Numbered from the stretch's first letter, positions 13,033-43,542 are shown. The stretch is DNA of 64,000 nt from Alphaproteobacteria bacterium (GCA_965227515.1 CBDDFZ010000002.1:576001-640000); one strand, 5' to 3'. Translations and numbers: made by a program. The notes: generated from the sequence alone by a model not told the origin.

Positions 13033-13911
13033 TCAGCGCGGGCCGACAGCGATCTCCTCATGGACGCCGATGGCGTCGGCGAGCACGTCCCGGTCGACGT
13101 CCCGCGGATTCCATTCGGCCGCCACCCGGCCATTGCGCAGCAGCACGATCCGGTCGGCGAGTTGCAGCACCTCCTCGACATCGTGGCTGACGAACAGCAC
13201 CGCGCCGCCGCGGTCGCAGAAATGCCGGGCCAGCCGCAACACGGTCTCGGTTTGGGCGACGCCCAGAGACGCGGTGGGCTCGTCCAGCAGCAGCACCCGC
13301 GCATCGGCCCGCAGGGCGCGCGCGACGGCAATCGCCTGGCGCTGACCGCCGGAGAGGTTGCGCACCCGGGTTCCCCGGACCGGCACGTCGATGCCGAAAT
13401 CGCGAAAGATGCGCGTCGCCTCGCGCCGCATGGCCCGGTGATCGACGATGCTGAGCAACGGACCCAGCACGGCACGCCGCGGCTCGTCGCCCAGGAACAG
13501 GTTGGCGGTGGCGTCCAGATTGCCGCACAGCGCCAGATCCTGATACGCGGTCGCAATGCCGGCGGCCATGGCGTCACGCGGCCGGGCGAAATGTGCCGGC
13601 GCACCGTCGACCAGAATTTCTCCCGCGTCCGGCTCCAGGGCGCCTGATAACAGCTTGATCAGGGTCGTCTTGCCGGCGCCGTTGTCGCCGATCAGAGCAA
13701 CCGCCTCGCCGGCATGTAGATCGAGGTCGATGCCCGCAATCGCCGGGCGGCCGCCAAAGCCCTTCCATGCATCGCGCAGGGCCAGGACGGTCGGCGGCCC
13801 ATCAATACGTGGCTGGGGCTCTGGATCGTTGCTTTCGGGCTGCACGGTTCGGTTGTCGTCGGTCGGATGCCAGGGGCCACCACCTTGGTGTTTTCGGCAG
13901 CCCCGTGGCAA
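13033..13911 (-). CDS. Sugar-type (CUT2) single-domain ABC ATPase, orphan
   Basis: GDNGAGKT, YQDLAL, LSGGQRQ, LLLDEPTA, VSH. True start probably lies downstream of 13911. Confidence 0.85.
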   Translation of the reverse strand: MPRGCRKHQGGGPWHPTDDNRTVQPESNDPEPQPRIDGPPTVLALRDAWKGFGGRPAIAGIDLDLHAGEAVALIGDNGAGKTTLIKLLSGALEPDAGEILVDGAPAHFARPRDAMAAGIATAYQDLALCGNLDATANLFLGDEPRRAVLGPLLSIVDHRAMRREATRIFRDFGIDVPVRGTRVRNLSGGQRQAIAVARALRADARVLLLDEPTASLGVAQTETVLRLARHFCDRGGAVLFVSHDVEEVLQLADRIVLLRNGRVAAEWNPRDVDRDVLADAIGVHEEIAVGPR

Positions 13912-28792: not shown

Positions 28793-29704
28793 ATGTGCGG
28801 CATCGCCGGCATTCTCTACAAGGACATCGGAGCCAAGCGCAATACGTCTACCGGGCGTGCGCTGATCGACATGCTGGACGGGTGCCAGCATCGCGGTCCC
28901 GACTCCACCGGTTTCGCGCTTTACGGCGACGCAGCACCGGGCCAGTTGCGCATGCGCTTCTTCGTCGGCAGCGGCGACGAGGCCGCGAGCGCCATCCAGC
29001 GCATCAAGGACCTGTTGGCCGAGCGCGGCGCCGAGATCGTCGAGGACGAGGTCATCGGCAACAACTACCGCGTGCTGATGGCGTTCGACGGCGATCTGCA
29101 GAAGCTGGCCTATGACGTGGAGCACGCCGCCAAGGTGATCTCCATCGGCACTTCGCTGGAAATCATCAAGGATATCGGCGGCGCGCACGACGTTGACGAT
29201 GTCTATCACGTGCAATCGTTTTCAGGCACGCACGGGCTGGGCCATGTGCGGCTGGCGACCGAGAGCGACGTGAAGCCGGAAGCGGCGCATCCGTTCTGGG
29301 CCACCGGCTTCGCCGACATCGCCATCGTCCACAACGGCCAGATCACCAACTACTGGAAGATGCGCCGCCGGCTGGAGCAGCGCGGCTTCGAATTCCACAC
29401 CGACAATGACTCAGAACTGATCGCGGTCTATCTCGCCGACAAGCTGCAACAGGGCATCGCGCTGGAAGAGGCGCTGAAGACCTCCATCGACGATCTGGAC
29501 GGTACGTTCTCGTTCCTGGTCTCGACCAAGGACGAGATCGGCTATGCCAAGGACCGCCTCGCGGTGAAGCCGATGGTCATGTACGAGACCGACGACATGA
29601 TCGCGATCGCGTCGGAGGAGGTGTCGCTGAACAAGCTCTTCCCCGGCATGGCGCTGGACACCACCGAGCCGGCCCCCGGCACCTACCGTACCTGGCACCG
29701 GTAG
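28793..29704 (+). CDS. Class II glutamine amidotransferase (GlxB/GltB1-like)
   Basis: N-terminal MCGIAG, HRGPDSTG, GHVRLATES, AHPF, VHNGQITN, TDNDSE. Confidence 0.9.
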   Translation: MCGIAGILYKDIGAKRNTSTGRALIDMLDGCQHRGPDSTGFALYGDAAPGQLRMRFFVGSGDEAASAIQRIKDLLAERGAEIVEDEVIGNNYRVLMAFDGDLQKLAYDVEHAAKVISIGTSLEIIKDIGGAHDVDDVYHVQSFSGTHGLGHVRLATESDVKPEAAHPFWATGFADIAIVHNGQITNYWKMRRRLEQRGFEFHTDNDSELIAVYLADKLQQGIALEEALKTSIDDLDGTFSFLVSTKDEIGYAKDRLAVKPMVMYETDDMIAIASEEVSLNKLFPGMALDTTEPAPGTYRTWHR

Positions 29705-29772
29705 GGCTCAAGTGAAAGTGCGGGACTCCCAGTGGCTCGGCTGTGCGCGTGACCGGTCACGTTATTCTGTTT

Positions 29773-29859
29773 CGTCATGCTCGGGCTTGTCCCGAGCATC
29801 CACGTCTTGGCAACACCTGATCAAAGACGTGGATGCCCGCAACAAGTGCGGGCATGACG
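29773..29859. repeat. Family A palindromic repeat, inverted orientation, within the glutamate-synthase-like cluster
   Basis: Reverse-complement arrangement of the copy at 1174. Confidence 0.9.
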
Positions 29860-29887
29860 GTTCTGTCAAATTCAGTCACGACAACTC

Positions 29888-31873
29888 ATGACCACCAAGA
29901 CAATCGACCTGGCCAAAGTCCCCGTGCGCGAGGCGAACGTGCTGATGCGCGAGATCGCGGCCGCTGGCGACGACATCGAGATCGTCAATCCCGACGCGCG
30001 CCACCACATCGGCGTCGGGCTCACCGTGCCCCATGACGCGCCGAATACGGTGAAGGTGCGCGGGTCCGCCGGCTACTTCTGCGCCGGGCTCAGCGACGGC
30101 GTGCGCTTCGAGGTCGACCACAATGTCGGCTGGGGCCTGGCCGACAACATCTATAACGGCAGCGTCGTCGTCGGCGGCAATGCCGGCGCCATCGCCGGTG
30201 TCGCCATTCGCGGCGCCGAGGTAGTGGTGAAGGGCAACATCGGCAGCCGCGCCGGCCAGGTGATGAAGGCCGGGACCCTGCTGTGCTGCGGCAACGCCAA
30301 TTTCATGGCCGGCTACATGATGTATGGCGGGCGCATCATCATCCTGGGCAACTCCGGCGAGCAGGTCGGCGAAGATATGTCGGCGGGCGACATCTATGTC
30401 GCGGGAGAGGTGCAGTCGCTTGGCTCCGACGCCGAGCTGACCGACCTGCCGGCCGCCGAGCTGGACGATATTCGCGCGTTCCTGGATCGCTACAAGATCC
30501 CGTTCAGCGGCACCTTCCAGAAGGTGCAGAACGCCGGCACCAAGCTACGCTACGGCACCGCCGAGCCGCAGGTGCGCTCGATCCCGTTCTTTTCGTTCTC
30601 CGGCAAGACCGACTACTGGAATACCAAGGTCCAGGAGGACGTCTATATCAAGTCGCAGATCGGCCGGTACCGCATCCGCGGCTATGGCGGCGCGCGCGCC
30701 CTGCCGCATATGTCCGACCTGGCGTTCAGGAAGCCCGTGGTCGCAGAGACGATCCCGTCTAACGTGATCGAGAAGGTCGGCATGTACACCGAGATCGGCG
30801 GCATCAACGGCGCCGATCCGCTGAAGCTGTCGATGCCGGTGATGGTGGCGCCGATGAGCTATGGCGCGCTGTCGGCATCGACCAAGCGCGCCATCGGCAT
30901 GGCGTCCACCCTGTCGAAGATCGCAGAGAACACCGGCGAGGGCGGCATGTCCGACGCCCAGCGCGGCGCCGCCGAGCAGCTTATCTTCCAGTGCCTGGGC
31001 GGGCGCCTGGGCTGGAACATCCACGACATGAAGCGGGCCGACGGCCTGGAAATATACATCAGCCAGGGCGCCAAGCCAGGCCTGGGCGGCCAGTTGATGG
31101 CCAAGAAGGTGACGCCGGAGCTGGCGCGCATTCGCGGCATCCCGCCGGGCATCGACCTGCGCTCGCCGTCTCGCCACCCGGACATCCTGGGCGCCGACGA
31201 CCTGGTGATCAAGGTGCAGGAGTTCCGCGAGGCGACGGGATACAAGCTGCCGGTCTCGGTCAAGCTGGGCGCGGGCCGGGTGCGCGACGACATCAAGATC
31301 GCGACCAAGGACGAGTTCGATTTCGTCGAGCTGGACGGTATGCAGGGGTCGACCGGCGCCGGCTCGGCGGAGGTGCTGGAATATGTCGGTATCCCGACGC
31401 TGGCCGCGATCATCGAGGCGATCGAGGCGCTGGAGGAAATCCATGCGCGCGACAAGATCCAGCTCGTGCTGATGGGGGGCTTGCGCGACGGCATCGACGC
31501 CGTGAAGTCGCTGTGCCTGGGCGCCGACGCGGTGGCGTTCGGCACCGCCACTATCATCGCCGGCGGCTGCATCGCCTGCATGCAGTGCCATATCGGCCAG
31601 TGCGTCACCGGCATCGCCACCCAGGACCCGGCGCACGAGAGCCGCTACAAGCCGGACGTGGAGGCGCAGAACATCCATCGCTTCTTCGAGAGCGTGCGCT
31701 GGCAGATCGCCGCCATCACCGATGCGCTGGGCCATGACAGCGTCACCAAGCTGGGCCGCGACGACCTGGTCGCGCTGACGCCGGAGGCGGCGGCCATCAC
31801 CGGCCTGCCCTACGAGCCGGAGCACCGCGACCTGACCGGCGACATCGCCATCCAGGCCGGGCAAGTGTCATGA
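29888..31873 (+). CDS. Fusion of a GXGXG beta-helix domain and an FMN-binding glutamate synthase domain (GlxC+GlxD-like)
   Basis: N-terminal G-rich repeats (GSAGYFCAG, GNAG, GNIGSRAG, M-GG-I); PMSYGALS, NTGEGG, QGAKPG-GG-L, PVSVK, DG-QG-TG, CIACMQCHIGQC-TGIATQDP Fe-S motif. Confidence 0.9.
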   Translation: MTTKTIDLAKVPVREANVLMREIAAAGDDIEIVNPDARHHIGVGLTVPHDAPNTVKVRGSAGYFCAGLSDGVRFEVDHNVGWGLADNIYNGSVVVGGNAGAIAGVAIRGAEVVVKGNIGSRAGQVMKAGTLLCCGNANFMAGYMMYGGRIIILGNSGEQVGEDMSAGDIYVAGEVQSLGSDAELTDLPAAELDDIRAFLDRYKIPFSGTFQKVQNAGTKLRYGTAEPQVRSIPFFSFSGKTDYWNTKVQEDVYIKSQIGRYRIRGYGGARALPHMSDLAFRKPVVAETIPSNVIEKVGMYTEIGGINGADPLKLSMPVMVAPMSYGALSASTKRAIGMASTLSKIAENTGEGGMSDAQRGAAEQLIFQCLGGRLGWNIHDMKRADGLEIYISQGAKPGLGGQLMAKKVTPELARIRGIPPGIDLRSPSRHPDILGADDLVIKVQEFREATGYKLPVSVKLGAGRVRDDIKIATKDEFDFVELDGMQGSTGAGSAEVLEYVGIPTLAAIIEAIEALEEIHARDKIQLVLMGGLRDGIDAVKSLCLGADAVAFGTATIIAGGCIACMQCHIGQCVTGIATQDPAHESRYKPDVEAQNIHRFFESVRWQIAAITDALGHDSVTKLGRDDLVALTPEAAAITGLPYEPEHRDLTGDIAIQAGQVS

Positions 31874-31883
31874 GCCCCAAGTC

Positions 31884-34403
31884 ATGAGTAACGTCTACAA
31901 CGTGAACCGCATCGACACGCCCGACGTGCCGCCGGACTACGAGGACCACGTGCGCGAGGCGCATTACGTGCCCGCACCCTGTCAGGTGGCGTGCCCGGTC
32001 GGCACCGACGCGCCGTCCTACCTCGCCTATATCTGGGAGGAGGAGTGGGAGAAGGCGTTCGAGGCGATCACCGCCACCAACCCGTTCTCCTCGATCTGCG
32101 GGCGGGTGTGCGACGCGCCGTGCGAGCCGGCTTGCCGCCGCGCCCAGTCCGATGGGCCGGTCGCCATCCGCAACCTGAAGCGGGTGGTGATGGACAAGCT
32201 GGGCAAGGAATGGCGCCCGCCGCAGCACCCGGTCACCCAGAGCCAGACCATCGGCATCGTCGGCGCCGGGCCGGCCGGCCTGACCGCCGCCCACGACCTC
32301 GCCGTCGCCGGCTACAAGGTCGACGTCTACGAGATGTCGGACCGCCCCGGCGGCATGATGATCTGGGGCATTCCCGGCTTCCGCTGCCCGGCGGATGTGA
32401 TCCAGGAGGACATGGACCGCCTGTTCCACAAGTGTCCCGGCATCACGCTCCACCTGAACACGTCGCTGGGCAGCGACGTCACGCTCGATGAGCTGAAGCA
32501 GCGCCATGACGCCGTGCTGCTGACCATCGGCTCGTGGTGGGGCAAGCCGATGGGCATCCCCGGCGAGGACGACGAGCGCGTGGTCGACGGCGTTTCGTTC
32601 CTGCGCCGCATCAATGCCGGCGAGCGGCCGGAACTGCCGGAGACTGTGGTGGTGGTCGGCGGCGGCGACGTGGCGATGGACGCCTGCCGCGCGGCACTCC
32701 GCATGCCCGGCTGCGAGAAGGTGAAGGTCGTCTATCGGCGCGGGCCCGACGAGATTCCGGCGCGCAAGGACGAGCTTGAGGGCGCGCTGAAGGAAGGCAT
32801 CGAGTTCGTCTACAACACCCAGCAGATGGCGGTCGCGCCCGACGGCAACGGCCTGGCGCTGACGTGCGTGCGCACCGAGATGGGCGCGCCCGATCCCGAG
32901 GACGGCCGCCGCCGCCCGGTGGTCGTCGAGGGGTCGGAGCACGACATCGCCTGCGGCATGGTGATCGCCGCCGTCGGCCAGACCGCCGCCTCCGACGAGC
33001 TTGCCGGCCATGGCCTGATGGCGAGCGACCGGGTTGCGACCGAATGGGACGGCATGCGCACCGGCGACCCCAAGGTCTTCGCCGCCGGCGACGGCGCCTT
33101 CGGCGGGTCGACCATCGTGATGGCGATGCAGCACGGCCAGCGCGCGGCGTACTATGTGCGCCAGTTCCTGAATGGCGTCGACGCCCCGCTGCCCTACCGC
33201 ACGCCGTGGCGCACCCGCCGCGTGCGGATGGCCGAGGACATCATGTGGGAGCGTTTCCCGCGCCAGGAGCAGGAGTTCCATGGCGTCGGCGAGAACCCGG
33301 CCGCGTTCCCGGAGATCGAGAGCGGCTACGACGTCGCGACCGCGCGGGCCGAGGCGGCGCGCTGCTATCGCTGCGACGCCGAGACCGGCTCCAGCGACTA
33401 TGCGGTCGCCCATCGCGAGGACATCTTCTCGATGGCGCGCACCAACCCCATCGACGTGCGCAAGAACAAGGCGATGCTGGCCAAGCGCCTGGCGCCGCGC
33501 GCCAATCCTTTCCCGGAGGCGCGGCCGGCCAGCATGGACGACCTGGTTTTCCTGCCGGCGAACCTGTCGCGGCTGGTGATCGACCCCTATCGCGAGGCCT
33601 GCCGCGTCGACACCGACCTCGGCGGCCGCTACGAGTTGGCTCGCCCGTTCATGGTCGGCGGCATGGACGACCTGCCGGAGCAGGTCTGGACGGGTCTTGC
33701 GCAGGGCTTGCAAAAGGCGGGCACGCCCTATGTCGGCGCCCGCAACCCGGGTGTTGGCGTCGACTGGTTCCAGGTCGTCTCGCCGCGCGATACCGCATCG
33801 GCGGACGCCGCGGCCGTGCTGTTCCAGCCCGGCGCCAAGCCCGTGCGCGGCCGTGACGGGCAGCTTTTGGGGCTTGTCATCGACGACCCGGCGGCGGTGG
33901 CCGACGCGGTGCCGGCGGCGTTCGAAGCCGGGTGCGACCTGTTGCTCCTGGACGGCACCGGCTCCATGAACGCCGGCTGGTCCGAGTTGAAGGGCGCGCC
34001 CGACCACTCGATCCTGCGCGAGACCATCCATGTGCTGCGCGACATGAAGCGCGAGGAGCATATCGATCTGGTCTGGTATGGCGGCGCGCGCTCCGGCACC
34101 GATGCCGCCAAGCTGATCGGCATGGGCGCCAAGGCCGTCGTCTACGGCGTGCCGGTGGCGATGGCGATCGGCGGCACCATCACGCCCGACCACCACATGG
34201 CGTTCACCGCCGACCGCAGCGACGAGGACCGCGCCTCGGCGGTGGCGAACCTGATGCAGGCCCATGCCGGCGAGGCGTCGATGATGGCGCGGTGCACCGG
34301 CAAGACCAACCTGATGAACTTGGAGCCGGAGGACCTGCGCGCGATCACCATCGCCACCCACCAGGCGACCGGCATTCCGCTTGTGGGCAAGCACGCGTCA
34401 TAG
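31884..34403 (+). CDS. GltD-like NAD(P)H:FAD/Fe-S oxidoreductase fused to a degenerate glutamate-synthase FMN-barrel domain
   Basis: PCQ-ACP, ICGRVC--PCE--C, GAGPAGL, GGGDVAMD, YRRG, FAAGD, EA-RC-RC; then DDLVFLPANLSRLVIDPYRE-C ... ARCTGK-NL-NLEPEDL. Confidence 0.85.
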   Translation: MSNVYNVNRIDTPDVPPDYEDHVREAHYVPAPCQVACPVGTDAPSYLAYIWEEEWEKAFEAITATNPFSSICGRVCDAPCEPACRRAQSDGPVAIRNLKRVVMDKLGKEWRPPQHPVTQSQTIGIVGAGPAGLTAAHDLAVAGYKVDVYEMSDRPGGMMIWGIPGFRCPADVIQEDMDRLFHKCPGITLHLNTSLGSDVTLDELKQRHDAVLLTIGSWWGKPMGIPGEDDERVVDGVSFLRRINAGERPELPETVVVVGGGDVAMDACRAALRMPGCEKVKVVYRRGPDEIPARKDELEGALKEGIEFVYNTQQMAVAPDGNGLALTCVRTEMGAPDPEDGRRRPVVVEGSEHDIACGMVIAAVGQTAASDELAGHGLMASDRVATEWDGMRTGDPKVFAAGDGAFGGSTIVMAMQHGQRAAYYVRQFLNGVDAPLPYRTPWRTRRVRMAEDIMWERFPRQEQEFHGVGENPAAFPEIESGYDVATARAEAARCYRCDAETGSSDYAVAHREDIFSMARTNPIDVRKNKAMLAKRLAPRANPFPEARPASMDDLVFLPANLSRLVIDPYREACRVDTDLGGRYELARPFMVGGMDDLPEQVWTGLAQGLQKAGTPYVGARNPGVGVDWFQVVSPRDTASADAAAVLFQPGAKPVRGRDGQLLGLVIDDPAAVADAVPAAFEAGCDLLLLDGTGSMNAGWSELKGAPDHSILRETIHVLRDMKREEHIDLVWYGGARSGTDAAKLIGMGAKAVVYGVPVAMAIGGTITPDHHMAFTADRSDEDRASAVANLMQAHAGEASMMARCTGKTNLMNLEPEDLRAITIATHQATGIPLVGKHAS

Positions 34404-34920: not shown

Positions 34921-35883
34921 ATGAACGGTCGAACGGAGCCATTGCGGTCAAGAGCTTGCCTGCTTGCGACATTGCTGCTGATTGGGCCGCATGCCATGGC
35001 GCAGGACACGTGGCAGCCGGACGCGTTCGGCACGCCGCCGCAGGTCGGTGACTGCCAGGTCTTCCCGGCGGACAATCCCTGGAACTGGGACATATCCGAC
35101 GCGCCGGTGCACCCGATGTCCGACGCCTATATCGCGTCGATCTCCAACCGTGGGCCGCAGAACCTGCACCCCGATTTCGGCGAGAACCCGGCGTACGGTT
35201 TCCCGTACCAGATCGTCGATGCGCGCCAGCCGCCGGTGCCGATCGTCTTCACCGACTATGCGGACGAAAGCGACCCTGGGCCGTATCCGATTCCGCCCGA
35301 CGCGCGCACCGAGAGCGGTGACGACAAGCACGTCATCGTCGTCGATGGCACGGACTGCATGCTCTACGAGCTCTACCTGGCCGAGCGCGCGGGCGACGGC
35401 TGGACGGCGGCGTCCGGTGCCGTGTTCGACCTCGGCTCCAACGCGCTCAGGCCCATGGGCTGGACCTCGGCCGATGCCGCGGGTCTGCCGATCTTTCCCG
35501 GGCTGGCTCGTTATGAAGAGGTGGCCAGCGGCGAGATCCGTCATGCGCTCAGGTTCACCGTGCAGCAGACCCAGCGCGCGTTCATTCCGCCGGCCACCCA
35601 TTGGGCCTCGCTCAGCGACAACCCGGACCTGCCGCCGATGGGCCTGCGCTTGCGCCTGCGCGCCGATTTCGACATCGCCGCCTACAGCGGGCAGGCGCGC
35701 GTCATCCTGCAGGCGTTGCAGCGCTATGGCATGATCCTGGCCGACAACGGCGCCAACTGGTTCATCTCCGGCGCGCCATCGCCTGACTGGAACGACGCCG
35801 AGCTCAACCAATTGAAGCGGGTGCCGGGCACGGCGTTCGAGGCGGTGCTGACCGGTCCCCTGGTGCGGCCGGGGGATTTTTAG
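34921..35883 (+). CDS. Conserved-looking secreted hypothetical protein
   Basis: Signal peptide; FPADNPWN-DIS--PV, SDPGPYPIP, D-H--V-D---C-LYE, WTSADAAGLPIFPGL, I-HALRFT, PPMG-R-RL, YGMI-ADNG. Confidence 0.8.
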   Translation: MNGRTEPLRSRACLLATLLLIGPHAMAQDTWQPDAFGTPPQVGDCQVFPADNPWNWDISDAPVHPMSDAYIASISNRGPQNLHPDFGENPAYGFPYQIVDARQPPVPIVFTDYADESDPGPYPIPPDARTESGDDKHVIVVDGTDCMLYELYLAERAGDGWTAASGAVFDLGSNALRPMGWTSADAAGLPIFPGLARYEEVASGEIRHALRFTVQQTQRAFIPPATHWASLSDNPDLPPMGLRLRLRADFDIAAYSGQARVILQALQRYGMILADNGANWFISGAPSPDWNDAELNQLKRVPGTAFEAVLTGPLVRPGDF

Positions 35884-35889
35884 TTCAGG

Positions 35890-38088
35890 CTATCGAACGG
35901 CACGCCGCGCCCGCTCCAGCATCTCCGGCAACACATTCAGCACCAGTGCGGCGTCGTCGAAGGCGCCGCGGAGCATCGCCAGCAGATCCTTGGCCACCAG
36001 CACCTGCGGCATTTCCTGTTTCAGCAGCGCCAGGATGTCCCGGTCATACGTGATGCGCCCGTTGAGCGCACCGTGGAGGCGCGCCTTGGCGCCCTTGGCG
36101 GCCTGTAGCTCGGCGGCGATGCCGTAGCCGAGTTCGCCGTGGAACTTGATCTCCTGCAACCCGCCGATCATCGTCTCCAGCAGTTCAAGCGTGATGGCTT
36201 CGGTCTTCGGCGGCATCTTGCCGGTCTGCCAGAACGTGCGCAGCATCTCCACGGCCTGCGACAGCAGCGACTTGGCGGCGTCCTGGGCGGCCCCAGGCAG
36301 TTCGGGCAGCTTCTCGAAGTTCTTCATCGCCTCGGTCGCTTTGGCGATCAGAACCTTCACTGCCGGGTCTGCTTTGATTTCGGCCAGTAACAAATCGCCG
36401 ATCTTGGCCACCATCTGCCGCACAATTTCGCCGGGCAGCAGGAACTTGAACGTCACGAGCCCGACGACGTGAATGCCCCGCTGATCGTAGCCGGGCGACA
36501 GCATGGTGGTGAACGTCTTGAAGCGTGACAACGCGATCGTGTAGTCGCGCCCGATCGTGGATCCGATACCGATCCGGTAGACCATCTTGGTGGTCTCGAT
36601 GGCGGCGACAAAGGTCTCGAGGCTGGCATAGGTCTCGAGGTCGAGCCCCGGCAGCTGCATCGCGGTCTCGTGGGCCGGCCGGTCGTCGGCATCAAGGTCG
36701 CCGGTCTGCAAGTAGACCTCATGATCGACCAGGCTGGTGTTCTTGCGGCTGATGGGCGCCTTGGCTTCCAGGTTGACGCGCAGGCCGGCTGTCGCGTCCA
36801 GATTCAGGCCCGGCAACAGCCCGCCGATCAGCGGCAAGACCGCAGCCAGCGAGACCGCGGAGCGGCCCTCGGCGAAGAATTGGACCTTGGCCTTCTCGAA
36901 TTCGGGCACGCCATCCTTGTCGCGCCCGTATTTGGGCTCGATGACAAGGCCGCCGCCGGCTTCAAGGTTCAGGGTGCCGGAAAGGCTGGCGCGCAGGATC
37001 TGCTGTATCAGGCCGCGGAGATTGAAGATGTACCTCCAGCCCTTCTGCTTGTCGTCGAAGAAGACGAACTCGCGGCTGCTGTCCTCCGTCTTGCCGACCG
37101 TGCGCTTGGCCTTGAAGGTGCGGCGCCGCGGGCGGTATTTGCGGCCGGTCTCGGGATCGACGGTGCGCTCGCCCGTGCGTTCGCCGCGGGTACGCACGCC
37201 GGCCTCCGCCAACGCGCCGCCGCGCGCCGAGAGTTTGCCCTCCAGCTTCAGCTTCTTGCGATAGGGGTCCGGCAGCAGCGTCTTCAGGCTGGTCTCGAAC
37301 ACCGATGCCAGCCGCACCTCATCGTCGACACTGGCTATGAACACCAGCAGCGGAAGCAGGCCGGGGTCCTCGAACACCGGAAACTCGAACTCCTCCTCCG
37401 CACGCAGGACAAGGCTGAGTTGGGCCTGGGCCGCGGCGTTGGCGCCGATGCCCTGGCGCGCGGTGGCACGGTCGATCCGGCGTCCGGCTCCGGCGGTGCC
37501 GAGCTGAATGTAGCCGCCGGCCCCGATGCCGGAGTCGAGGCCACCGTCGACGATGCCTTCGCGCTTGAAGGTGAACTTGGTGGCGGTCGACCGGTAGAAA
37601 TTGAACTTGGCCTCGCCGGTCAGCTGGAACGGAACGCCGAATGTTGCGCCGATGGCGCCGTCCACCGCGAACCCGACGCCGACTTTCCAGTAGCGGTCGA
37701 CGATGCTTCGGGCCCAGGCTGTCGCGGCCTCGCCAGCGCGCTCGAAAAGGTCCTGTGCGTCGCGCTGGTAGCCCGAACGCAGCAGATAGCGCAGCAGCCA
37801 CAGCCATACGTCGACGCCGAACTCGATCGGGCCCGGCAACAGGCCTTTCGATGCGCGCAGCAGGCGGCGGTAGTGCTCCGCCAGCTCGATGTCGAAGCCG
37901 TCCTCGATGCGTCTGCCGCGGCTGGCAGCGGCCGGGTCCGGCAGTGCCGTCCCCTGCCGCGCGACCCCGCGATCTGCGGTTCCCCGATCAGCGGTGCCTG
38001 GATCGAGCGCCAGATCGGCAAGCTGTGGGGCAACCCCGCCGGTGCCGGTCGGCGCCAGCGGGTCCAGTCCGCGCGGGTCCTCGGACAT
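35890..38088 (-). CDS. 732-aa hypothetical protein with a Gly-rich beta-strand core and helical ends; partner of the upstream 1123-aa protein
   Basis: Long ORF with protein-like composition; RBS (GGAAGGA) in the 21-bp gap after the upstream stop; no signal peptide; no family recognised. Confidence 0.8.
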   Translation of the reverse strand: MSEDPRGLDPLAPTGTGGVAPQLADLALDPGTADRGTADRGVARQGTALPDPAAASRGRRIEDGFDIELAEHYRRLLRASKGLLPGPIEFGVDVWLWLLRYLLRSGYQRDAQDLFERAGEAATAWARSIVDRYWKVGVGFAVDGAIGATFGVPFQLTGEAKFNFYRSTATKFTFKREGIVDGGLDSGIGAGGYIQLGTAGAGRRIDRATARQGIGANAAAQAQLSLVLRAEEEFEFPVFEDPGLLPLLVFIASVDDEVRLASVFETSLKTLLPDPYRKKLKLEGKLSARGGALAEAGVRTRGERTGERTVDPETGRKYRPRRRTFKAKRTVGKTEDSSREFVFFDDKQKGWRYIFNLRGLIQQILRASLSGTLNLEAGGGLVIEPKYGRDKDGVPEFEKAKVQFFAEGRSAVSLAAVLPLIGGLLPGLNLDATAGLRVNLEAKAPISRKNTSLVDHEVYLQTGDLDADDRPAHETAMQLPGLDLETYASLETFVAAIETTKMVYRIGIGSTIGRDYTIALSRFKTFTTMLSPGYDQRGIHVVGLVTFKFLLPGEIVRQMVAKIGDLLLAEIKADPAVKVLIAKATEAMKNFEKLPELPGAAQDAAKSLLSQAVEMLRTFWQTGKMPPKTEAITLELLETMIGGLQEIKFHGELGYGIAAELQAAKGAKARLHGALNGRITYDRDILALLKQEMPQVLVAKDLLAMLRGAFDDAALVLNVLPEMLERARRAVR

Positions 38089-38109
38089 TTCCCGGTCCTT
38101 CCGCTGCGA

Positions 38110-41100
38110 CTAGCTCTCGTTGCCTTCCTCGTCGACCGGGACCGGCTGGCCGTCGCGGCGATAGACCCGATAGCTGTCCTCGCCGCCATTGCGCCACGCC
38201 TGGTCGCCGGTACGCGCCGCCAGATGATGGTTCTCCAGGCAGGCGCGCTCCAGGTCCAGCATGCGGTGGGCCATCTTGTAGCCCTCCAGCAGCGGCACCT
38301 GGCCGGGCATCGCCTCCACCACCAGCGCGTCCTGGGCTACCTGAACCCGTCGCGAGCTCAGCACCTGGTCGCTGGCTTGCGGGTCGGTGATGAACGCCTG
38401 GCCGCGCATCTGCGCGATCACGTCGTCCAGTTCCTCCTCGCTGTACTGGCGGGCGAGTTGCTGGAACAGCTCGGTGTCGCGCAACTCGTCGTCCGACAGG
38501 GTGGAGAAGTCGCTGCCCGGCGTCATCGTGCGCACCAGCGCCTCGGCCAGCGCCATCGACGGGCCGACGAAATCGAAGATCTCCTCGTCGCCGTGATAGC
38601 CCTGGCGCATCAGGCCCCGGGTCAGTTGCGGCAGCGACAGTCCGCCGAAGGTCTCGGTGCGCAAGATCTTGTCGTAGTCGGTGCGCGGCGAGGCTTGCCA
38701 GATGAACTGCATGTAGTGGCAGATGTTCTGGCGCACGTGGGCGACCACCCGGTCCAGGCGCGAGCGGACGCGCTGATACGCGTCCTCGGCCGTCTGCAGT
38801 TCCTTGGTGGCTGTGGTCAGGGCTTCGCGCAGGCTTTGCAGCCTTGCCTCGTGCTCGCGCGCGGCTTCCGGCGGGTCGCCGGCCGGCAGCACGCGGTTCT
38901 CCGCCACCGTCAGCGCCAGCCTGCGCTCGTCCTGGACCGAGCGGGCCCGCAGTTCTGCCCGCGCCAGTGCCTCGATGTCGCCGACGCCGTTCTCCAGGTC
39001 CGACGACAATTGCGCCGGCAGCACGTTGATCAGGATGTGCGCGTTGTCGGCCAGGAACTTCTCGTCGATTTCCGGTTCGCTCGGCACCGCGCGGGTGCGC
39101 AGCAGCACCGGCCGCAGATCGTGCAGTTCCACGGTCACGGAATACTGCCGCAGCAGCTGGTAGTAGAAGTAGTTGGCGGTGATCTCCTGGTTCGGGTTCA
39201 CCACCTCGATCACCGAATCGGTTTCCTGCTCGACCGTCGTCTCCTCGCGCAGTTTCACCTCGCGCTTCTCGTTGTACGACATGGTCGCCTTCATCGACGC
39301 CTCGGCGATCGACGACTGTGCGGCACGGCTCATCGAGCCGATGGAGATGGTGTTGGTCGAAGTGACGTCCAGGCTGCCGATCACGATATCGAAGCCGCCG
39401 GAGGCCGACAGCGAGAAGTCGAACTTGTTTGTGTTCTCCTTCACGATCTCCGACGTTTCCTTCTGGGTCCGCGTGTAGTCGTTCTGCTGCGAGCGGGCGA
39501 ACTCCTGCACCGTCTGTTCCTCGCCCAGGCGCTTGACGAAGGTGCGGCGGTGGATGCGCTCCTTCTGTGCCGGCATCAGGTTCTTGTGCCCGACCAGCTT
39601 GCCTTTGACGTAGCCCTCCGGCGTCCAGTACTGGCGGTAGATCATCAGCAGGCCCAGGCGCTTCGACCCTTCGCCCCAGCGCTCGCTCCACAACGGCAAC
39701 TGCTCGGCGATGTCGTCCAGCAGCCGGGCGATGATGTACAGGGCATCGTTGATCTGGCCTTCGGCCAGGCGCTGGAAGTCCTTCAGCAGTTGCTCGCTGT
39801 TGCCTTTGGATTTGTCGACGGCATCGCGCATCTCGATGGCCGCCTGCTTCAGGCCGTCCAGGGCATCCTTGAACGGTCCGGCGAGATAGAACAGGTAGCG
39901 GCTGAGGGAGCGCACCTGCTCGTGGTCGTCGATGACCATGTCGCCATAGACCGCGCGCACGTTGCCGGGCCGCAAGCCCTCGATCTCCAGGTAGTCGGCT
40001 TTCTCGTTGCCGTCCTGGTTGCGGCGCATCTTGTCGTCTTCATAGAGACGGTAGTCGGGAACATCGGCAATGGCGATCGCCAGTTTCTCCAGCGAGGCCC
40101 GCGGGTTTGCATCGCCGAGCTTGCCGATGAACTGGCGCCGGCGCGCCGCGGACCGCACCAGGGTGGCGGCCGTGCGCATGCGCCGTTTCCACGCCCGCAC
40201 ATCGGTCAACGACGTCTGTTCGTCGACCTGCATCACCCGACTGAGCAGGTCGCGCGTTTCGGCGGCGACATTCGGCGGCTCCTGCAGGTTGCCGGCTGCG
40301 TCCGGCACCGCCGGATAGGTGCCGAGCACATCCGACAGGCCGAAGCTGTCCAGGAAGTCGAGCACCGCATGGATCTGTGCCGCCGACGCGCGCACCGCGT
40401 CGATGGAACGATGGTCGATGCTGGCGATCTCGGGCCGCAACGGGCCGCATTCGTCCACCGGCACCACCACGGCGTAGTCGTAGAAGATGTGCTCGCGTTG
40501 CAGCAATTGGCCGGGAAATGTGTAGCGCGGCTCGGCATCCACCGGCGGGCGCAGCGGCTGCATGCCGGCATTCACCATCAGATCGTTGGCGTCGCAGGTG
40601 TGCATGAGCGCGGCGCCGGCATCGACGCCGTTTCCGTCGGCGCCGTTTCCATCAGCATTGCCGCCGTCGGTGGTCGCCGTGCCGTCGACGACCGCATCGC
40701 GACGCGGCGACGTGCGGCTGCCGGTGCCGGAGCTGCCTGAGGCGCCGTTGCCCGACCCGTTACCGTTACCGTTGCCGCCCGGCTGGTTGCCGCCGGCGCC
40801 ATTTCCGTTCGGTGGCGTTTCCGCGTTCAACGCGTTCGCCTCACGCGCCGCCAGCGCATCGGTCCAGGCGGGGCGCAGCGGCACCGGTGCCTTCAGGCGG
40901 ACGAGATCGCCCACTTCGGGGATGTCGCCCGGCTGATACATGGTGCCGGCGATGGCGCGCCAGCGGGTGGCGAACAGCGTGATCGCGGCATTGATCTGCT
41001 GCTGGATCGACTGCTGTTGGGCCGCGTTCGCGTTGCCTGCGGGGTATTTGTCGTCCCGGATGGCGGTGCTGATCTCGCACAGGGTCGGTGTCGCCGGAAA

Positions 41101-41481
41101 GTCGTAGAGGACCTCCGACGGCTCGACGTAGCCCGCGGTGGCAAGAACCTGATACTGCTGGGCCACCGGCTGGTCGGCAATTGCGTCAACGTCCATGTCG
41201 TGACCCAGATGCGCGGCCACGTCCGCGACGATGGGCAGGACGCGCGCGACCTCGGCCGCCATGCGTGCCTCGGCCTTCCGGGGGTTCGGTTGCGCGGCCA
41301 CCGCCTTTGCCAGAGCGTCGGCATCGGCAAGCTGGGCCTTGAGCGCGACGTCCCGCAGCACAAGGTGGCGCAGCGTCCGCTCCGCCGGCGACGGCAATGC
41401 CGCTCTCGCGGCCATGCCGTCAAAGAGCTTGGCATTCAAGTCGGCAGGCGCGGCCTTCGACTTCGATGTCTTGTCTATCAT
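38110..41481 (-). CDS. 1123-aa hypothetical protein with a putative beta-pore-forming/translocation hairpin module
   Basis: Long ORF; Gly/Asn linker; YRQ-W---GY--G-L----L-P, then a long S/T/E/K-rich segment with a hydrophobic tip, then NPN---T-NY-YYQL-R-Y; coiled coil. The CDS is well supported; the function is inferred. Confidence 0.85.
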   Translation of the reverse strand: MIDKTSKSKAAPADLNAKLFDGMAARAALPSPAERTLRHLVLRDVALKAQLADADALAKAVAAQPNPRKAEARMAAEVARVLPIVADVAAHLGHDMDVDAIADQPVAQQYQVLATAGYVEPSEVLYDFPATPTLCEISTAIRDDKYPAGNANAAQQQSIQQQINAAITLFATRWRAIAGTMYQPGDIPEVGDLVRLKAPVPLRPAWTDALAAREANALNAETPPNGNGAGGNQPGGNGNGNGSGNGASGSSGTGSRTSPRRDAVVDGTATTDGGNADGNGADGNGVDAGAALMHTCDANDLMVNAGMQPLRPPVDAEPRYTFPGQLLQREHIFYDYAVVVPVDECGPLRPEIASIDHRSIDAVRASAAQIHAVLDFLDSFGLSDVLGTYPAVPDAAGNLQEPPNVAAETRDLLSRVMQVDEQTSLTDVRAWKRRMRTAATLVRSAARRRQFIGKLGDANPRASLEKLAIAIADVPDYRLYEDDKMRRNQDGNEKADYLEIEGLRPGNVRAVYGDMVIDDHEQVRSLSRYLFYLAGPFKDALDGLKQAAIEMRDAVDKSKGNSEQLLKDFQRLAEGQINDALYIIARLLDDIAEQLPLWSERWGEGSKRLGLLMIYRQYWTPEGYVKGKLVGHKNLMPAQKERIHRRTFVKRLGEEQTVQEFARSQQNDYTRTQKETSEIVKENTNKFDFSLSASGGFDIVIGSLDVTSTNTISIGSMSRAAQSSIAEASMKATMSYNEKREVKLREETTVEQETDSVIEVVNPNQEITANYFYYQLLRQYSVTVELHDLRPVLLRTRAVPSEPEIDEKFLADNAHILINVLPAQLSSDLENGVGDIEALARAELRARSVQDERRLALTVAENRVLPAGDPPEAAREHEARLQSLREALTTATKELQTAEDAYQRVRSRLDRVVAHVRQNICHYMQFIWQASPRTDYDKILRTETFGGLSLPQLTRGLMRQGYHGDEEIFDFVGPSMALAEALVRTMTPGSDFSTLSDDELRDTELFQQLARQYSEEELDDVIAQMRGQAFITDPQASDQVLSSRRVQVAQDALVVEAMPGQVPLLEGYKMAHRMLDLERACLENHHLAARTGDQAWRNGGEDSYRVYRRDGQPVPVDEEGNES

Positions 41482-41575
41482 CTGAAAATATCTCGGCGAC
41501 TATTGGGGGTGCCGATAATCAGATCAGACGCATGTGTCCAGGGCATGACCGCCGTGCGACAATGCGCGGGCGATT

Positions 41576-41583
41576 ATGGTTAA
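41576..41583 (-). promoter_or_regulatory. TTAACCAT (CtrA-type 8-mer half site) upstream of the 1123-aa gene
   Basis: Plus strand ATGGTTAA reads TTAACCAT on the coding strand, about 95 bp before the ATG. Confidence 0.4.
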
Positions 41584-41589
41584 TGCGTG

Positions 41590-42471
41590 TCAGTGCCGGT
41601 CCTGGCGCAGATAGACGCGGCCCAGCGCGGCCGGCTCGTCGTCATTGCGGCGGTGGCGCAGGCCGGCGACCACCAGCACGCCGAGGGTCGCGATATAGGG
41701 CAGCATGGTCAGCAGGTAGACCGGCACATCCTCGCCCGAGGCCTGCAGGCGCGGCACCACCGCCTCGATAGCGCCGAACAGCAGCGCGCCGGACAATGCC
41801 AGCATCGGCCGCCAGCGCGCGAAGATGACCAGCCCGACCGCGATCCAGCCACGGCCCTGGGTCATGCCCTCGACCCAGACCTGGCTCGACGCGATGGAAA
41901 TGAAGCCGCCGCCCAGCCCGCAGAGCGCGCCGCCAGCCAGCACGGCCAGGAAACGCCGCCCCTGCACGCCGATGCCGATGGCGTCGGCCGCCGCCGGATC
42001 CTCGCCAACCGCGCGCAGCCTGAGCCCGGCCCGGGTCCGGTTCAGCCACCAGGCGAGGCCGACGGTCAGTAACAGCGCCAGCACGACGTCGATGCCCTGG
42101 CCCAGCACCAGGTCGGGCAGGCCGGGCAGCGGTGCGTTGGTGATCTCGCGGCCGATCAGCCCGGTCAGCCCGTAGCCGAGCGCGACCAGGATCAGCCCGG
42201 TCACCACCTGCTCGGTGCGGAACACCACCACGGCGACACCGAACACCGCCGACAGCAGCAGCCCGCCGACGGGGGCTGCGGCCAGCCCCAGCCATGCCGA
42301 ATTGGTCTCCAGGCAGACCAGGGCGCCGGTCATGGCGCCGCACAGCATCATGCCTTCCGAGCCCAGATTGAGGATGCCCGCACGCTCGTTGACGATCAGG
42401 CCCAGGGCGGCGACCAGCAGCGGTGCGGCATAGCCTGGCGTGGCGGCGATCCAGTTGATCAGGAAGTCCAT
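41590..42471 (-). CDS. Nucleoside/purine-type ABC transporter permease
   Basis: ERAG-LNLG-EGMML-GA, LRAVGE-P-AA, GRGWIA--LVIFA-W-P, LPY--TL. Confidence 0.92.
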   Translation of the reverse strand: MDFLINWIAATPGYAAPLLVAALGLIVNERAGILNLGSEGMMLCGAMTGALVCLETNSAWLGLAAAPVGGLLLSAVFGVAVVVFRTEQVVTGLILVALGYGLTGLIGREITNAPLPGLPDLVLGQGIDVVLALLLTVGLAWWLNRTRAGLRLRAVGEDPAAADAIGIGVQGRRFLAVLAGGALCGLGGGFISIASSQVWVEGMTQGRGWIAVGLVIFARWRPMLALSGALLFGAIEAVVPRLQASGEDVPVYLLTMLPYIATLGVLVVAGLRHRRNDDEPAALGRVYLRQDRH

Positions 42472-43534
42472 TCAGCCGGCCCTCGGATGTGCCACGTGCA
42501 CGCGATAGCGGGCGGCGAAGTCGACCACCACGACGCTGAGCAGGATCACTGCCTCCAGCACCTGGATGACCGCCAGCGGCAGTTGGTAGAACGCCTTCAG
42601 TGCGTCGCCGGAGACATAGACGCCCGCCAGCACCAGCCCCACCGGCAGCACCGCCACCGGGTTCAGCCGGGCCAGAAGCGCGATCAGGATGGCGCTGAAC
42701 GTCAGGTCGCCGGCGATGTGCTGGGTGAGCCGGTATTCCTGTCCGGCGACGATGACGGCACCGGTCAGCCCGCCGAGCGCGCCGGACAGCCCGACGCCGA
42801 CCAAGAGTGTGGTGACCACCGGCACGCCAGCCCCCTTGGCCGCGCGCGGGTTCTCGCCGACGGCCGCCGCCTGCAGGCCGAAGCGGGTGAACTGCAGCAG
42901 CGCCAGCACCACGACGGCGGCGCCGAGCGCGATCCACAGCCCACTGTGCACATGGCCGTAGCCGATCCTGAGCAGGCGCTCGAACGGGTCGTCGAATTGC
43001 GGCGAGATCGGAAACCCGGTCGCCGGGTCGCGCCACGGCACATAGAGCAATTGCTGCGCGGTCTGATAGGCGATGTAGGTCAGCATCAGGGTCGACACCA
43101 CTTCGCTGACGCCGAGCTTGATCTTCAAGAGTGCCGGGATGCCGATCCACACCGCGCCGGCCAGAGCGCCCGCCACCAGCATCAGCCCCAGCCGCCATGA
43201 CGGGTTGCCGATATCGTCGATGGCGATCCAGCTCGCGACGATGGCGCCGATCCAGGCCTGGCCGTCGACACCGATGTTCCAGAACTTGAGCCGGAGCGCC
43301 AGCACCGCGCCCAGGCCGACCAGACACAACGAGATCGCGCGGGTCAGCGCCTGGGAGAAGCCGCTGTCGGTGGTGAAGACGTAGAGCACGAACTCGTCGA
43401 GCATCGCGCCCGGCCCGACCCCACTGAGCGCGAGGATGGCCATCGCCAGCGCGAGGCCGAGGGCGACCCCCGCCGCCAGTACAACCGCTTGCCGGCGCAG
43501 CGATATGTGCTGGCGCGCGGTGAGGGTGAGGCGA

Positions 43535-43542
<8 letters not shown>
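42472..43542 (-). CDS. Nucleoside/purine-type ABC transporter permease
   Basis: WNIG--GQ---G, EVV-TLML-Y, G-NP-AA--AG, I--ALLARLNP. Confidence 0.92.

Follow-up and report, generated by a model that had tools for sequence, protein, structure and literature searches.

The 64,000-nucleotide window analysed here (Alphaproteobacteria bacterium, GCA_965227515.1, CBDDFZ010000002.1:576001-640000; all positions are counted from the first letter of the window) carries two adjacent genes, P0001 and P0002, which we propose, with moderate confidence, to be a two-gene polymorphic-toxin cassette outside the named trafficking routes, consisting of a conserved carrier or translocator (P0001) and a leader-tagged, exchangeable cargo (P0002). 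An initial annotation, made from the sequence, had described two co-oriented open reading frames (ORFs) of 1123 and 732 amino acids, 21 bp apart with a ribosome-binding site between them, and the coordinates, the ATG starts and a GGAAGGA motif all agree with that description (Table 1): the stop codon of P0001 (TAG, 38110–38112) is followed by GGAAGGA and then, after 7 nt, by the ATG of P0002 at 38086–38088. P0001 has 33 relatives at E ≤ 1e-155 and P0002 has 90 at E ≤ 0.001, which argues that both are real genes and not chance ORFs. DNA contigs from four other public runs hold cassette copies that are 95–99% identical, one of which, a 1554-nt contig, bridges the P0001/P0002 junction; a look for RNA runs returned none.

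Across the related loci, the gene order is constant and the partner is variable. A co-oriented gene lies 3' of the large gene, at a gap of −4 to 271 nt, in all 12 distinct loci of the clade to which P0001 belongs (clade 1; duplicates were merged as L001=L007=L008, L004=L013 and L009~L011). By all-against-all BLASTP these partners fall into nine mutually unrelated families; a relative of P0002 is present in only three loci (the window, L004 and L005), and the other nine loci hold eight unrelated families. Conserved pairing of the two genes, which the initial annotation had put forward as a test of its own proposal, was thus not found. Pfam recognised DUF4347 in the partners of L006, L009 and L011, an OmpA-like domain in that of L012, and nothing in the other six cargos scanned.

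The clearest case of exchange is given by L009 and L010, whose large genes are 95.6% identical in DNA, with homology ending 91 nt past the stop codon, and whose partners are unrelated (a DUF4347 protein versus a protein of about 800 amino acids), indicating a recent swap of the entire downstream gene. No conserved third gene was found upstream of the large gene, where the ORFs vary by locus (permease, LuxR, M20 peptidase, methyltransferase and TPR proteins). An unannotated ORF of about 290 amino acids does lie just upstream in L009 (6877–7749) and L010 (1179–2066), and in these two loci only; the two copies are 94% identical, have no Pfam match and could represent an accessory gene of this sub-lineage. 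At the Competibacter locus (L001, 4969–9375), genes for a LuxR/GerE regulator and a 1039-amino-acid TPR/Trans_reg_C protein come before the large gene; regulators of the GerE and BTAD types are also described next to operons of extracellular contractile injection systems (eCIS) in PMC8213781.

Although the partners are otherwise unrelated by BLASTP, they have an N-terminal leader in common. P0002 and an unrelated partner from Competibacter share a peptide near both N-termini that is identical at 10 of 10 positions. Counting RG[T/V/L/I] motifs in the first 60 residues (the first 80 for proteins from the P0002-module search) with a threshold of at least two copies, we found that the partners at 10 of 12 distinct loci (11 of 13 rows) carry 2–5 copies of xRG[T/V/L/I], an enrichment over the window's own genome, in which 92 of 12,681 six-frame ORFs of at least 150 amino acids (0.73%) reach this threshold, a background already inflated by Arg/Gly-rich spurious frames. 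The remainder of the partner proteins contains seven RG[TVLI] motifs in total. P0002 is the only credible ORF with three motifs in its genome; the other eight ORFs with at least three are Arg-rich frames that look spurious, and they were rejected as candidates for further tagged cargo. In the P0002-module search, one of 91 proteins (query included) has two or more copies in its first 80 residues, and it is the partner of another large gene. Module relatives elsewhere lack the leader and unrelated partners of the large gene carry it, indicating that the RG leader tracks the neighbourhood and not the payload family. A complex prediction for P0001 residues 296–1123 with residues 1–75 of the P0002 leader returned a score of 0.00 and no verdict; run without controls and with the 295 N-terminal residues of P0001 omitted, it is uninformative either way.

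Behind its leader, P0002 is homologous to effector modules. Residues ~115–715 form the module found in the 90 other proteins, and they include, around residues 130–225, the Gly-rich alternating pattern that had been noted initially and is visible in the sequence. Among 45 relatives scanned with Pfam, 13 carry an N-terminal eCIS_core/DUF4157 domain, five PG_binding_1, four Lipase_3 and three SH3_3, and in two of the relatives the DUF4157 leader precedes the module and a lipase or hydrolase domain follows it at the C-terminus. DUF4157 is described as an eCIS marker that toxins carry N-terminally, in many cases together with a long linker (PMC8213781), a 'PVC-metallopeptidase' is listed as the leader of the Photorhabdus virulence cassette (PVC) route (PMC3482391, Table 1), and a haloarchaeal contractile system is reported to secrete DUF4157 proteins, some of them toxic, in a sheath-dependent manner (PMC11566945). 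With the same module standing behind a DUF4157 leader in eCIS effectors and, beside the large gene, behind an RG leader, the leader would appear to be route-specific and the payload route-independent. A match of P0002 to a PEPCK family in a protein atlas search (0.78) was treated as chance.

The large gene belongs to a family that is widespread and sparse. The 33 relatives of P0001 share 33–64% identity with it and are nearly all metagenomic, the named sources being Candidatus Competibacter, Cyanobium gracile, an Acidobacteriota metagenome-assembled genome (MAG) and an Odinarchaeota MAG. P0001 is single-copy in its own genome and was not found in the genomes of 40 relatives, where the sole extra match amounted to 20 bits against the low-complexity linker, nor in the 400 other genomes of the class sample; pattern scans gave four loci in the genomes of 185,579 species and 11 loci in metagenomes. 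A phage origin of the family was considered and rejected, as no relative of either P0001 clade was found in 2.9 million viral contigs. Our literature search, which covered neighbouring topics for a protein that has no searchable name and left supplementary tables uncovered, returned no description of the P0001 family, and we make no claim that it is absent from print.

A second clade became apparent from plasmids, where tblastn identified matches of 28–31% identity to the C-terminal core of P0001, carried by megaplasmids from Ciceribacter and from two species of Sinorhizobium and by a plasmid of a haloarchaeon. The Sinorhizobium protein (clade 2) has at least 496 relatives of its own, all annotated as 'hypothetical', from bacteria and archaea, including Streptosporangium, Modestobacter, Deinococcus, Pontibacter, Methyloterricola and Thermoanaerobaculia. 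A profile-profile comparison of the two clades (hhalign, alignment A1 versus A4) gave a probability of 100 and an E-value of 1.1e-42 over 502 columns, covering only P0001 residues ~583–1094; the N-terminal halves differ between the clades and, within the P0001 family, alignments show the C-terminal half to be much better conserved than the N-terminal half. This identifies, at the level of sequence profiles, the C-terminal core of about 530 amino acids as the constant unit of a large unannotated superfamily. Four proteins of 626–666 amino acids (P0013, P0030, P0034 and P0035), two of them on contigs longer than 30 kb, cover the C-terminal half of P0001 only, and the conserved core may also occur as a stand-alone protein or a split gene. 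Plasmids of Sinorhizobium medicae and Ensifer canadensis (14 records, H9–H22) hold only a 24–30-residue piece (residues 895/901–924) of the clade-2 large protein at 97–100% identity, which may be a remnant or a short shared element.

Clade 2 extends the association with effector-like partners. The clade-2 large genes of Sinorhizobium and of a haloarchaeon are followed by partners with a pre-toxin TG (PT-TG) domain, both of which were checked (E 1e-13 and 3e-9) and one of which is annotated so in RefSeq. The haloarchaeal partner has RG[IL] motifs if it is read from an in-frame upstream ATG, and the Sinorhizobium partner has a duplicated DRMC motif near its start instead of RG. On the haloarchaeal plasmid (L024), a 114-amino-acid hypothetical ORF 3' of the PT-TG partner (13295–13639) could be an immunity gene; merB and a gene with a VWA domain are found close by.

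P0001 matched no Pfam family even at E ≤ 1, and neither P0001 nor P0002 gave anything above threshold in Pfam, NCBIfam, PADLOC or PHROGs. A Kyte-Doolittle scan, which is a rough substitute for a signal-peptide predictor, detected no N-terminal hydrophobic segment in either protein, none anywhere in P0001 and one in P0002 (residues 410–428), in line with the initial annotation, which had seen neither a signal peptide nor an enzyme motif. That annotation had also called the large protein modular, and the AlphaFold2 secondary structure agrees: the full-length model (mean predicted local distance difference test (pLDDT) score 64, and <50 over residues 645–756) has N-terminal helices at residues 32–178, a disordered stretch at 219–295, a mixed domain at 296–517, a helical hairpin at 519–594, very long strands at 607–653 and 748–796 that enclose a helix, a short hairpin (690–711) and a second helix, and a coiled coil at 836–918 followed by an alpha/beta domain at 920–1092. 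A model of the C-terminal 529 amino acids, built from a 34-sequence alignment, reached a pLDDT of 66.8. Residues Y320, F322, P323, D335, Y336 and P341 are invariant in the mixed domain that spans residues 296–520 (alignment A1). In the short hairpin, whose strands are predicted at 690–699 and 702–711 with pLDDT <50, the alternation of hydrophobicity across residues 687–714 is retained in all 34 aligned sequences; the hairpin sits between predicted strands of 27–29 residues and, as modelled, is compatible with membrane insertion.

Fold searches did not place P0001 in a described family. Foldseek returned no PDB match at E ≤ 0.001 for the full-length or the C-terminal model and none in BFVD for the full-length model; its top rows (MakE/SmhA/NheA, SMC/Rad50 and SipB/IpaB) were rejected as coiled-coil-type matches with a template-modelling (TM) score <0.2 on the query. 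PDB sequence and profile searches with alignments A1, A3 and A4 gave nothing meaningful, and a protein atlas search with P0001 hit unnamed clusters only. Membership of the aerolysin/ETX-MTX2 or protective-antigen families, the precedents on which the initial annotation had drawn, accordingly found no Pfam, PDB sequence or Foldseek support.

From these observations we infer toxic partners, binding of the leader to the carrier, oligomerisation, membrane insertion and an export route, arranged as follows. The first gene would encode the constant part, a protein whose core bears an amphipathic hairpin on very long strands, and the second an exchangeable effector with a disordered N-terminal leader of two to five xRG[T/V/L/I] copies, the effector body of P0002 being a module otherwise of eCIS/PVC-type effectors that probably acts on the cell envelope. 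The RG leader most likely docks the effector on an assembly of the first gene's product, and the repetition of the motif in a disordered segment suggests multivalent binding to an oligomer. This assembly would then use the amphipathic hairpin to carry the effector from the producer to the outside and/or through the membrane of a target, and new effectors would be gained through exchange of the entire downstream gene, leader included.

Several observations weigh against this proposal. The partners at two of the 12 loci (L002 and L014) are without the RG leader, as is the clade-2 Ciceribacter partner, which has neither the RG nor the DRMC motif. Both P0001 and P0002 lack a signal peptide, and no export route is in evidence. 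No immunity-like gene follows P0002 in the window, where the next gene is convergent and conserved in relatives in which the cassette was not found. No toxin catalytic domain was recognised in P0002 by Pfam, NCBIfam or a PDB profile search, and its module, because relatives have it between a leader and a lipase domain, may serve delivery or act as a linker and not be the toxic part. The models of P0001 are weak (mean pLDDT 64–67, with the hairpin <50) and without a Foldseek match at E ≤ 0.001 in PDB or BFVD. Finally, TssC, a component of type VI secretion systems (T6SS), occurs in four of five clade-1 host genomes, so that the cassette may depend on an existing machine.

The comparison with known systems is closest for polymorphic toxins, in which a signature N-terminal leader is paired with a signature neighbour gene, for example VgrG/PAAR with T6SS cargo or LXG/WXG with the type VII secretion system (Zhang, Iyer, Aravind et al. 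2012, PMC3482391). The P0001 loci resemble them in having a constant trafficking component, exchangeable toxin modules (nine families over 12 loci), cassette-wide replacement between near-identical loci, PT-TG in clade-2 partners and an N-terminal leader common to unrelated payloads. They differ in that the constant part is encoded as a protein of its own, outside all known families, a short repeated peptide and not a folded domain serves as the leader, the locus has no link to a recognised secretion machine, and no immunity gene follows P0002. None of the known export-route signatures (signal peptide, two-partner secretion (TPS), VgrG/PAAR, LXG/WXG, DUF4157 or MuF) was found in P0001 or P0002 by Pfam, and P0002 has no PT-TG or other recognised toxin or pre-toxin domain in profile scans, its homology being to eCIS-effector modules only. 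We regard it as an evenly balanced proposition that the locus is a polymorphic toxin system in kind, set apart by an undescribed constant partner and an undescribed leader.

Other systems share single features with the cassette. The body of P0002 is like eCIS/PVC effectors in being homologous to a module that has a DUF4157 leader in 13 of 45 scanned relatives, some followed by a lipase domain, whereas P0002 itself lacks DUF4157 (PF13699) and has the RG leader in its place. DUF4157/PF13699 was not found in the window's genome, in a search that also found none in any control genome, and the phage-type sheath PF04984 was found neither there nor in the four other host genomes. Binary AB toxins (anthrax protective antigen with LF/EF; C2; iota) offer an analogy only: they too combine a constant part, which in the cassette is possibly membrane-inserting, with several alternative enzymatic or effector partners that bear an N-terminal recognition element, but P0001 has no PA14/Binary_toxB match and no signal peptide, the partner diversity here is far greater, and the partners share only a short repeated motif, in contrast to the folded adaptor domain of about 250 amino acids in AB toxins. 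With aerolysin/ETX-MTX2 proteins, P0001 has in common elongated predicted strands and a Ser/Thr-rich amphipathic hairpin (at pLDDT <50), yet it has no sequence or fold match to them, is four to five times larger, bears its hairpin between charged helices and lacks a secretion signal.

The most serious rival is that the cassette is an accessory module of a T6SS, with P0001 acting as a dedicated adaptor or carrier that loads the leader-tagged effector on a spike or tube for which the genes lie at another place in the genome. Genes for T6SS effectors often follow the gene of their carrier, and TssC (PF05943) is present in the window's genome and in three of four other searchable clade-1 genomes, compared with 42 of 200 class-sample genomes; five genomes are, however, a small sample, and larger genomes carry T6SS more often. 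The DUF4347 partners recall PA0256, a DUF4347 protein described as a putative Hcp-dependent T6SS toxin (PMC8262886). Against this, the T6SS genes lie on a different replicon from the cassette, and Pfam finds no VgrG, PAAR, Hcp or adaptor or marker domain (DUF4123, DUF1795, DUF2169, MIX) in P0001, P0002 or the scanned flanks. The family is also present in Cyanobium and an Odinarchaeota MAG, and clade 2 in Streptosporangium, Modestobacter and Deinococcus, lineages that are not known to have a T6SS. On balance we consider the T6SS module unlikely. In the window's genome itself, contig C1 has two full-length TssC/VipB genes in tandem and one further, partial match (~4003749–4006252 and 312653–313162), indicating at least one T6SS in the host, on a replicon without the cassette. 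Separately, many very small genomes (0.5–2 Mb) of the class sample gave full-length TssC matches, which is unexpected for reduced genomes.

Weaker than the T6SS explanation, and in our estimate rather improbable, is a role in anti-phage defence by abortive infection, which the initial annotation had raised and in which P0001 would be a conserved sensor whose exchangeable toxic effectors kill an infected cell from within. Defence systems are commonly laid out with one constant large protein and an effector that varies, neither protein has an export signal, the distribution is sporadic (P0001 was not found in the 40 relatives and 400 class-sample genomes noted above) and the L002 locus adjoins a Prim-Pol/DnaB gene of a type typical of mobile elements. 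However, neither PADLOC nor the flanking genes lend it support: PADLOC-DB 2.0 gave no credible match (one weak row, SP_VI, E 0.012, 13.8 bits), the scanned flanks are not defence islands, Pfam and NCBIfam show no sensor or enzyme domain in P0001, be it an NTPase, a nuclease or another, and modules of the partners recur in secreted effectors (eCIS_core, PT-TG, OmpA-like and PG-binding contexts). The absence of relatives from the viral contigs is neutral in this respect.

Two further explanations appear to us more remote still. In the one, P0001 would be the shell of a protein cage or nanocompartment into which the RG leader packages diverse cargo. Encapsulin cargo is loaded by short peptides, including repeated motifs in the disordered N-terminal domains of Family 2 cargo, and a short repeated terminal peptide in a disordered segment of unrelated proteins beside one conserved gene follows the same logic; the repeats suggest multivalent binding to an oligomer, and both proteins are cytoplasmic by sequence. 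P0001 nonetheless matches neither the HK97/encapsulin fold nor any other shell family (Pfam, PDB, Foldseek), its conserved amphipathic hairpin would be unexpected in a soluble shell, and the cargos are toxin-like and resemble effectors, not the usual metabolic enzymes. In the other, the 1123- and 732-amino-acid proteins would be obligate, co-evolving partners of a single beta-pore-forming toxin. The tight coupling of the genes (21 nt), the recurrence of the same pair in L004, L005 and the near-identical DNA of other runs, with one contig bridging the junction, the amphipathic hairpin of P0001 and the Gly-rich strands of P0002 all speak for such a pair; yet in nine of 12 distinct loci the large protein is paired with proteins unrelated to P0002, the P0002 module occurs mostly without the large protein, within eCIS-type effectors, and no beta-pore-forming toxin family is matched in Pfam, PDB or Foldseek. 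The initial suggestion of a pore with a partner or cargo therefore holds in part, in that the two unannotated genes form a cassette that looks co-transcribed, the cargo option fits and the amphipathic Ser/Thr-rich hairpin is conserved; a fixed pairing does not hold, as the partner families vary.

A bolder form of the polymorphic-toxin reading is that the P0001 superfamily is a self-contained delivery device of bacteria and archaea, an oligomer that would move any RG-leader protein across a membrane via its hairpin, independently of T6SS, eCIS and other known machines. We put this forward tentatively, as a doubtful possibility. Were it true, the leader would act as a transferable loading tag and the superfamily, with its more than 500 proteins, would be a new trafficking mode for polymorphic toxins, one that could include the 'PT-TG singleton' proteins; together with 'PT-TG toxin' proteins, these are described as widespread among bacteria, monoderm and diderm, and as having no known machinery for export, their route being left open in that report (PMC13483458, 2026).

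Table 1 Features of the P0001/P0002 cassette and its immediate surroundings in the window.
Feature	Coordinates	Strand	Basis
Large conserved gene P0001, 1123 aa; proposed carrier/translocator	38110..41481	-	ORF and stop-free translation, ATG start
Downstream gene P0002, 732 aa; proposed leader-tagged effector cargo	35890..38088	-	ORF and stop-free translation, ATG start
21-nt intergenic spacer with ribosome-binding site GGAAGGA (38096-38102)	38089..38109	-	Junction sequence
P0002 N-terminal leader, residues 1-60, three RG[TVLI] motifs (R6-L8, R35-T37, R40-V42)	37909..38088	-	Sequence, motif count
Tandem RG motif pair of the P0002 leader	37963-37992	-	Sequence
P0002 payload body, residues ~115-715; module elsewhere behind eCIS_core/DUF4157 leader	35944..37746	-	Matched stretches; Pfam of relatives
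P0001 N-terminal helical domain, residues ~30-218, clade 1-specific	40828..41394	-	AlphaFold2 helices, pLDDT 78-90; not aligned to clade 2 by hhalign
P0001 Gly/Asn-rich disordered linker, residues 219-295	40597..40827	-	Sequence; pLDDT <50
P0001 mixed alpha/beta domain, residues 296-520	39922..40596	-	Alignment A1; AlphaFold2 model
P0001 conserved C-terminal core common to clade 2, residues ~583-1094 (long strands, hairpin, coiled coil, alpha/beta domain)	38200..39735	-	hhalign, plasmid tblastn, models
P0001 conserved amphipathic Ser/Thr-rich hairpin, residues 687-715, charged helices either side	39337..39423	-	Column hydrophobicity, 34 sequences; AlphaFold2 strands at low pLDDT
108-nt intergenic region, less GC-rich, 5' of P0001; possible promoter region	41482..41589	-	Sequence
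Terminator-like hairpin between convergent gene ends	35854..35878	+	Consensus match only; 4 seen vs 3.5 expected

The cassette has an ordinary GC content relative to the window and, as the initial annotation had stated, lies among unrelated metabolic genes: glutamate-synthase-like genes on one side (28793–34403, + strand) and two BPD_transp_2 (branched-chain amino-acid) permease genes on the other (41590–43542, − strand). The glutamate-synthase-like cluster comprises three genes, encoding a class-II glutamine amidotransferase of 303 amino acids, a GXGXG + Glu_synthase protein of 661 amino acids and an 839-amino-acid protein in which a Fer4_20/pyridine-nucleotide oxidoreductase is fused to a second Glu_synthase-like part. 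Between this cluster and P0002, a 320-amino-acid ORF (34921–35883, + strand) without a Pfam match converges on the cassette; it is kept at 68–69% identity in two of three same-family genomes, which identifies it as a core gene of unknown function and not a member of the cassette. No sigma-70-like promoter match was found in the 108-nt region upstream of P0001. In relatives, the two genes that flank the cassette lie on different contigs, and an empty insertion site could for this reason not be shown.

If the proposal of a carrier with exchangeable, leader-tagged cargo holds, these loci would represent a new polymorphic-toxin route, defined by a characteristic neighbour gene together with a characteristic leader. 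More than 500 large 'hypothetical proteins' of Proteobacteria, Actinobacteria, Deinococcus, Bacteroidetes, Acidobacteria, Cyanobacteria and archaea would thereby gain a function, and PT-TG proteins of diderm bacteria and archaea an export or loading route; the short linear leader might be put to use as a loading tag. Under the T6SS or the defence explanation, too, the swappable partner genes would be a source of uncharacterised effector families.

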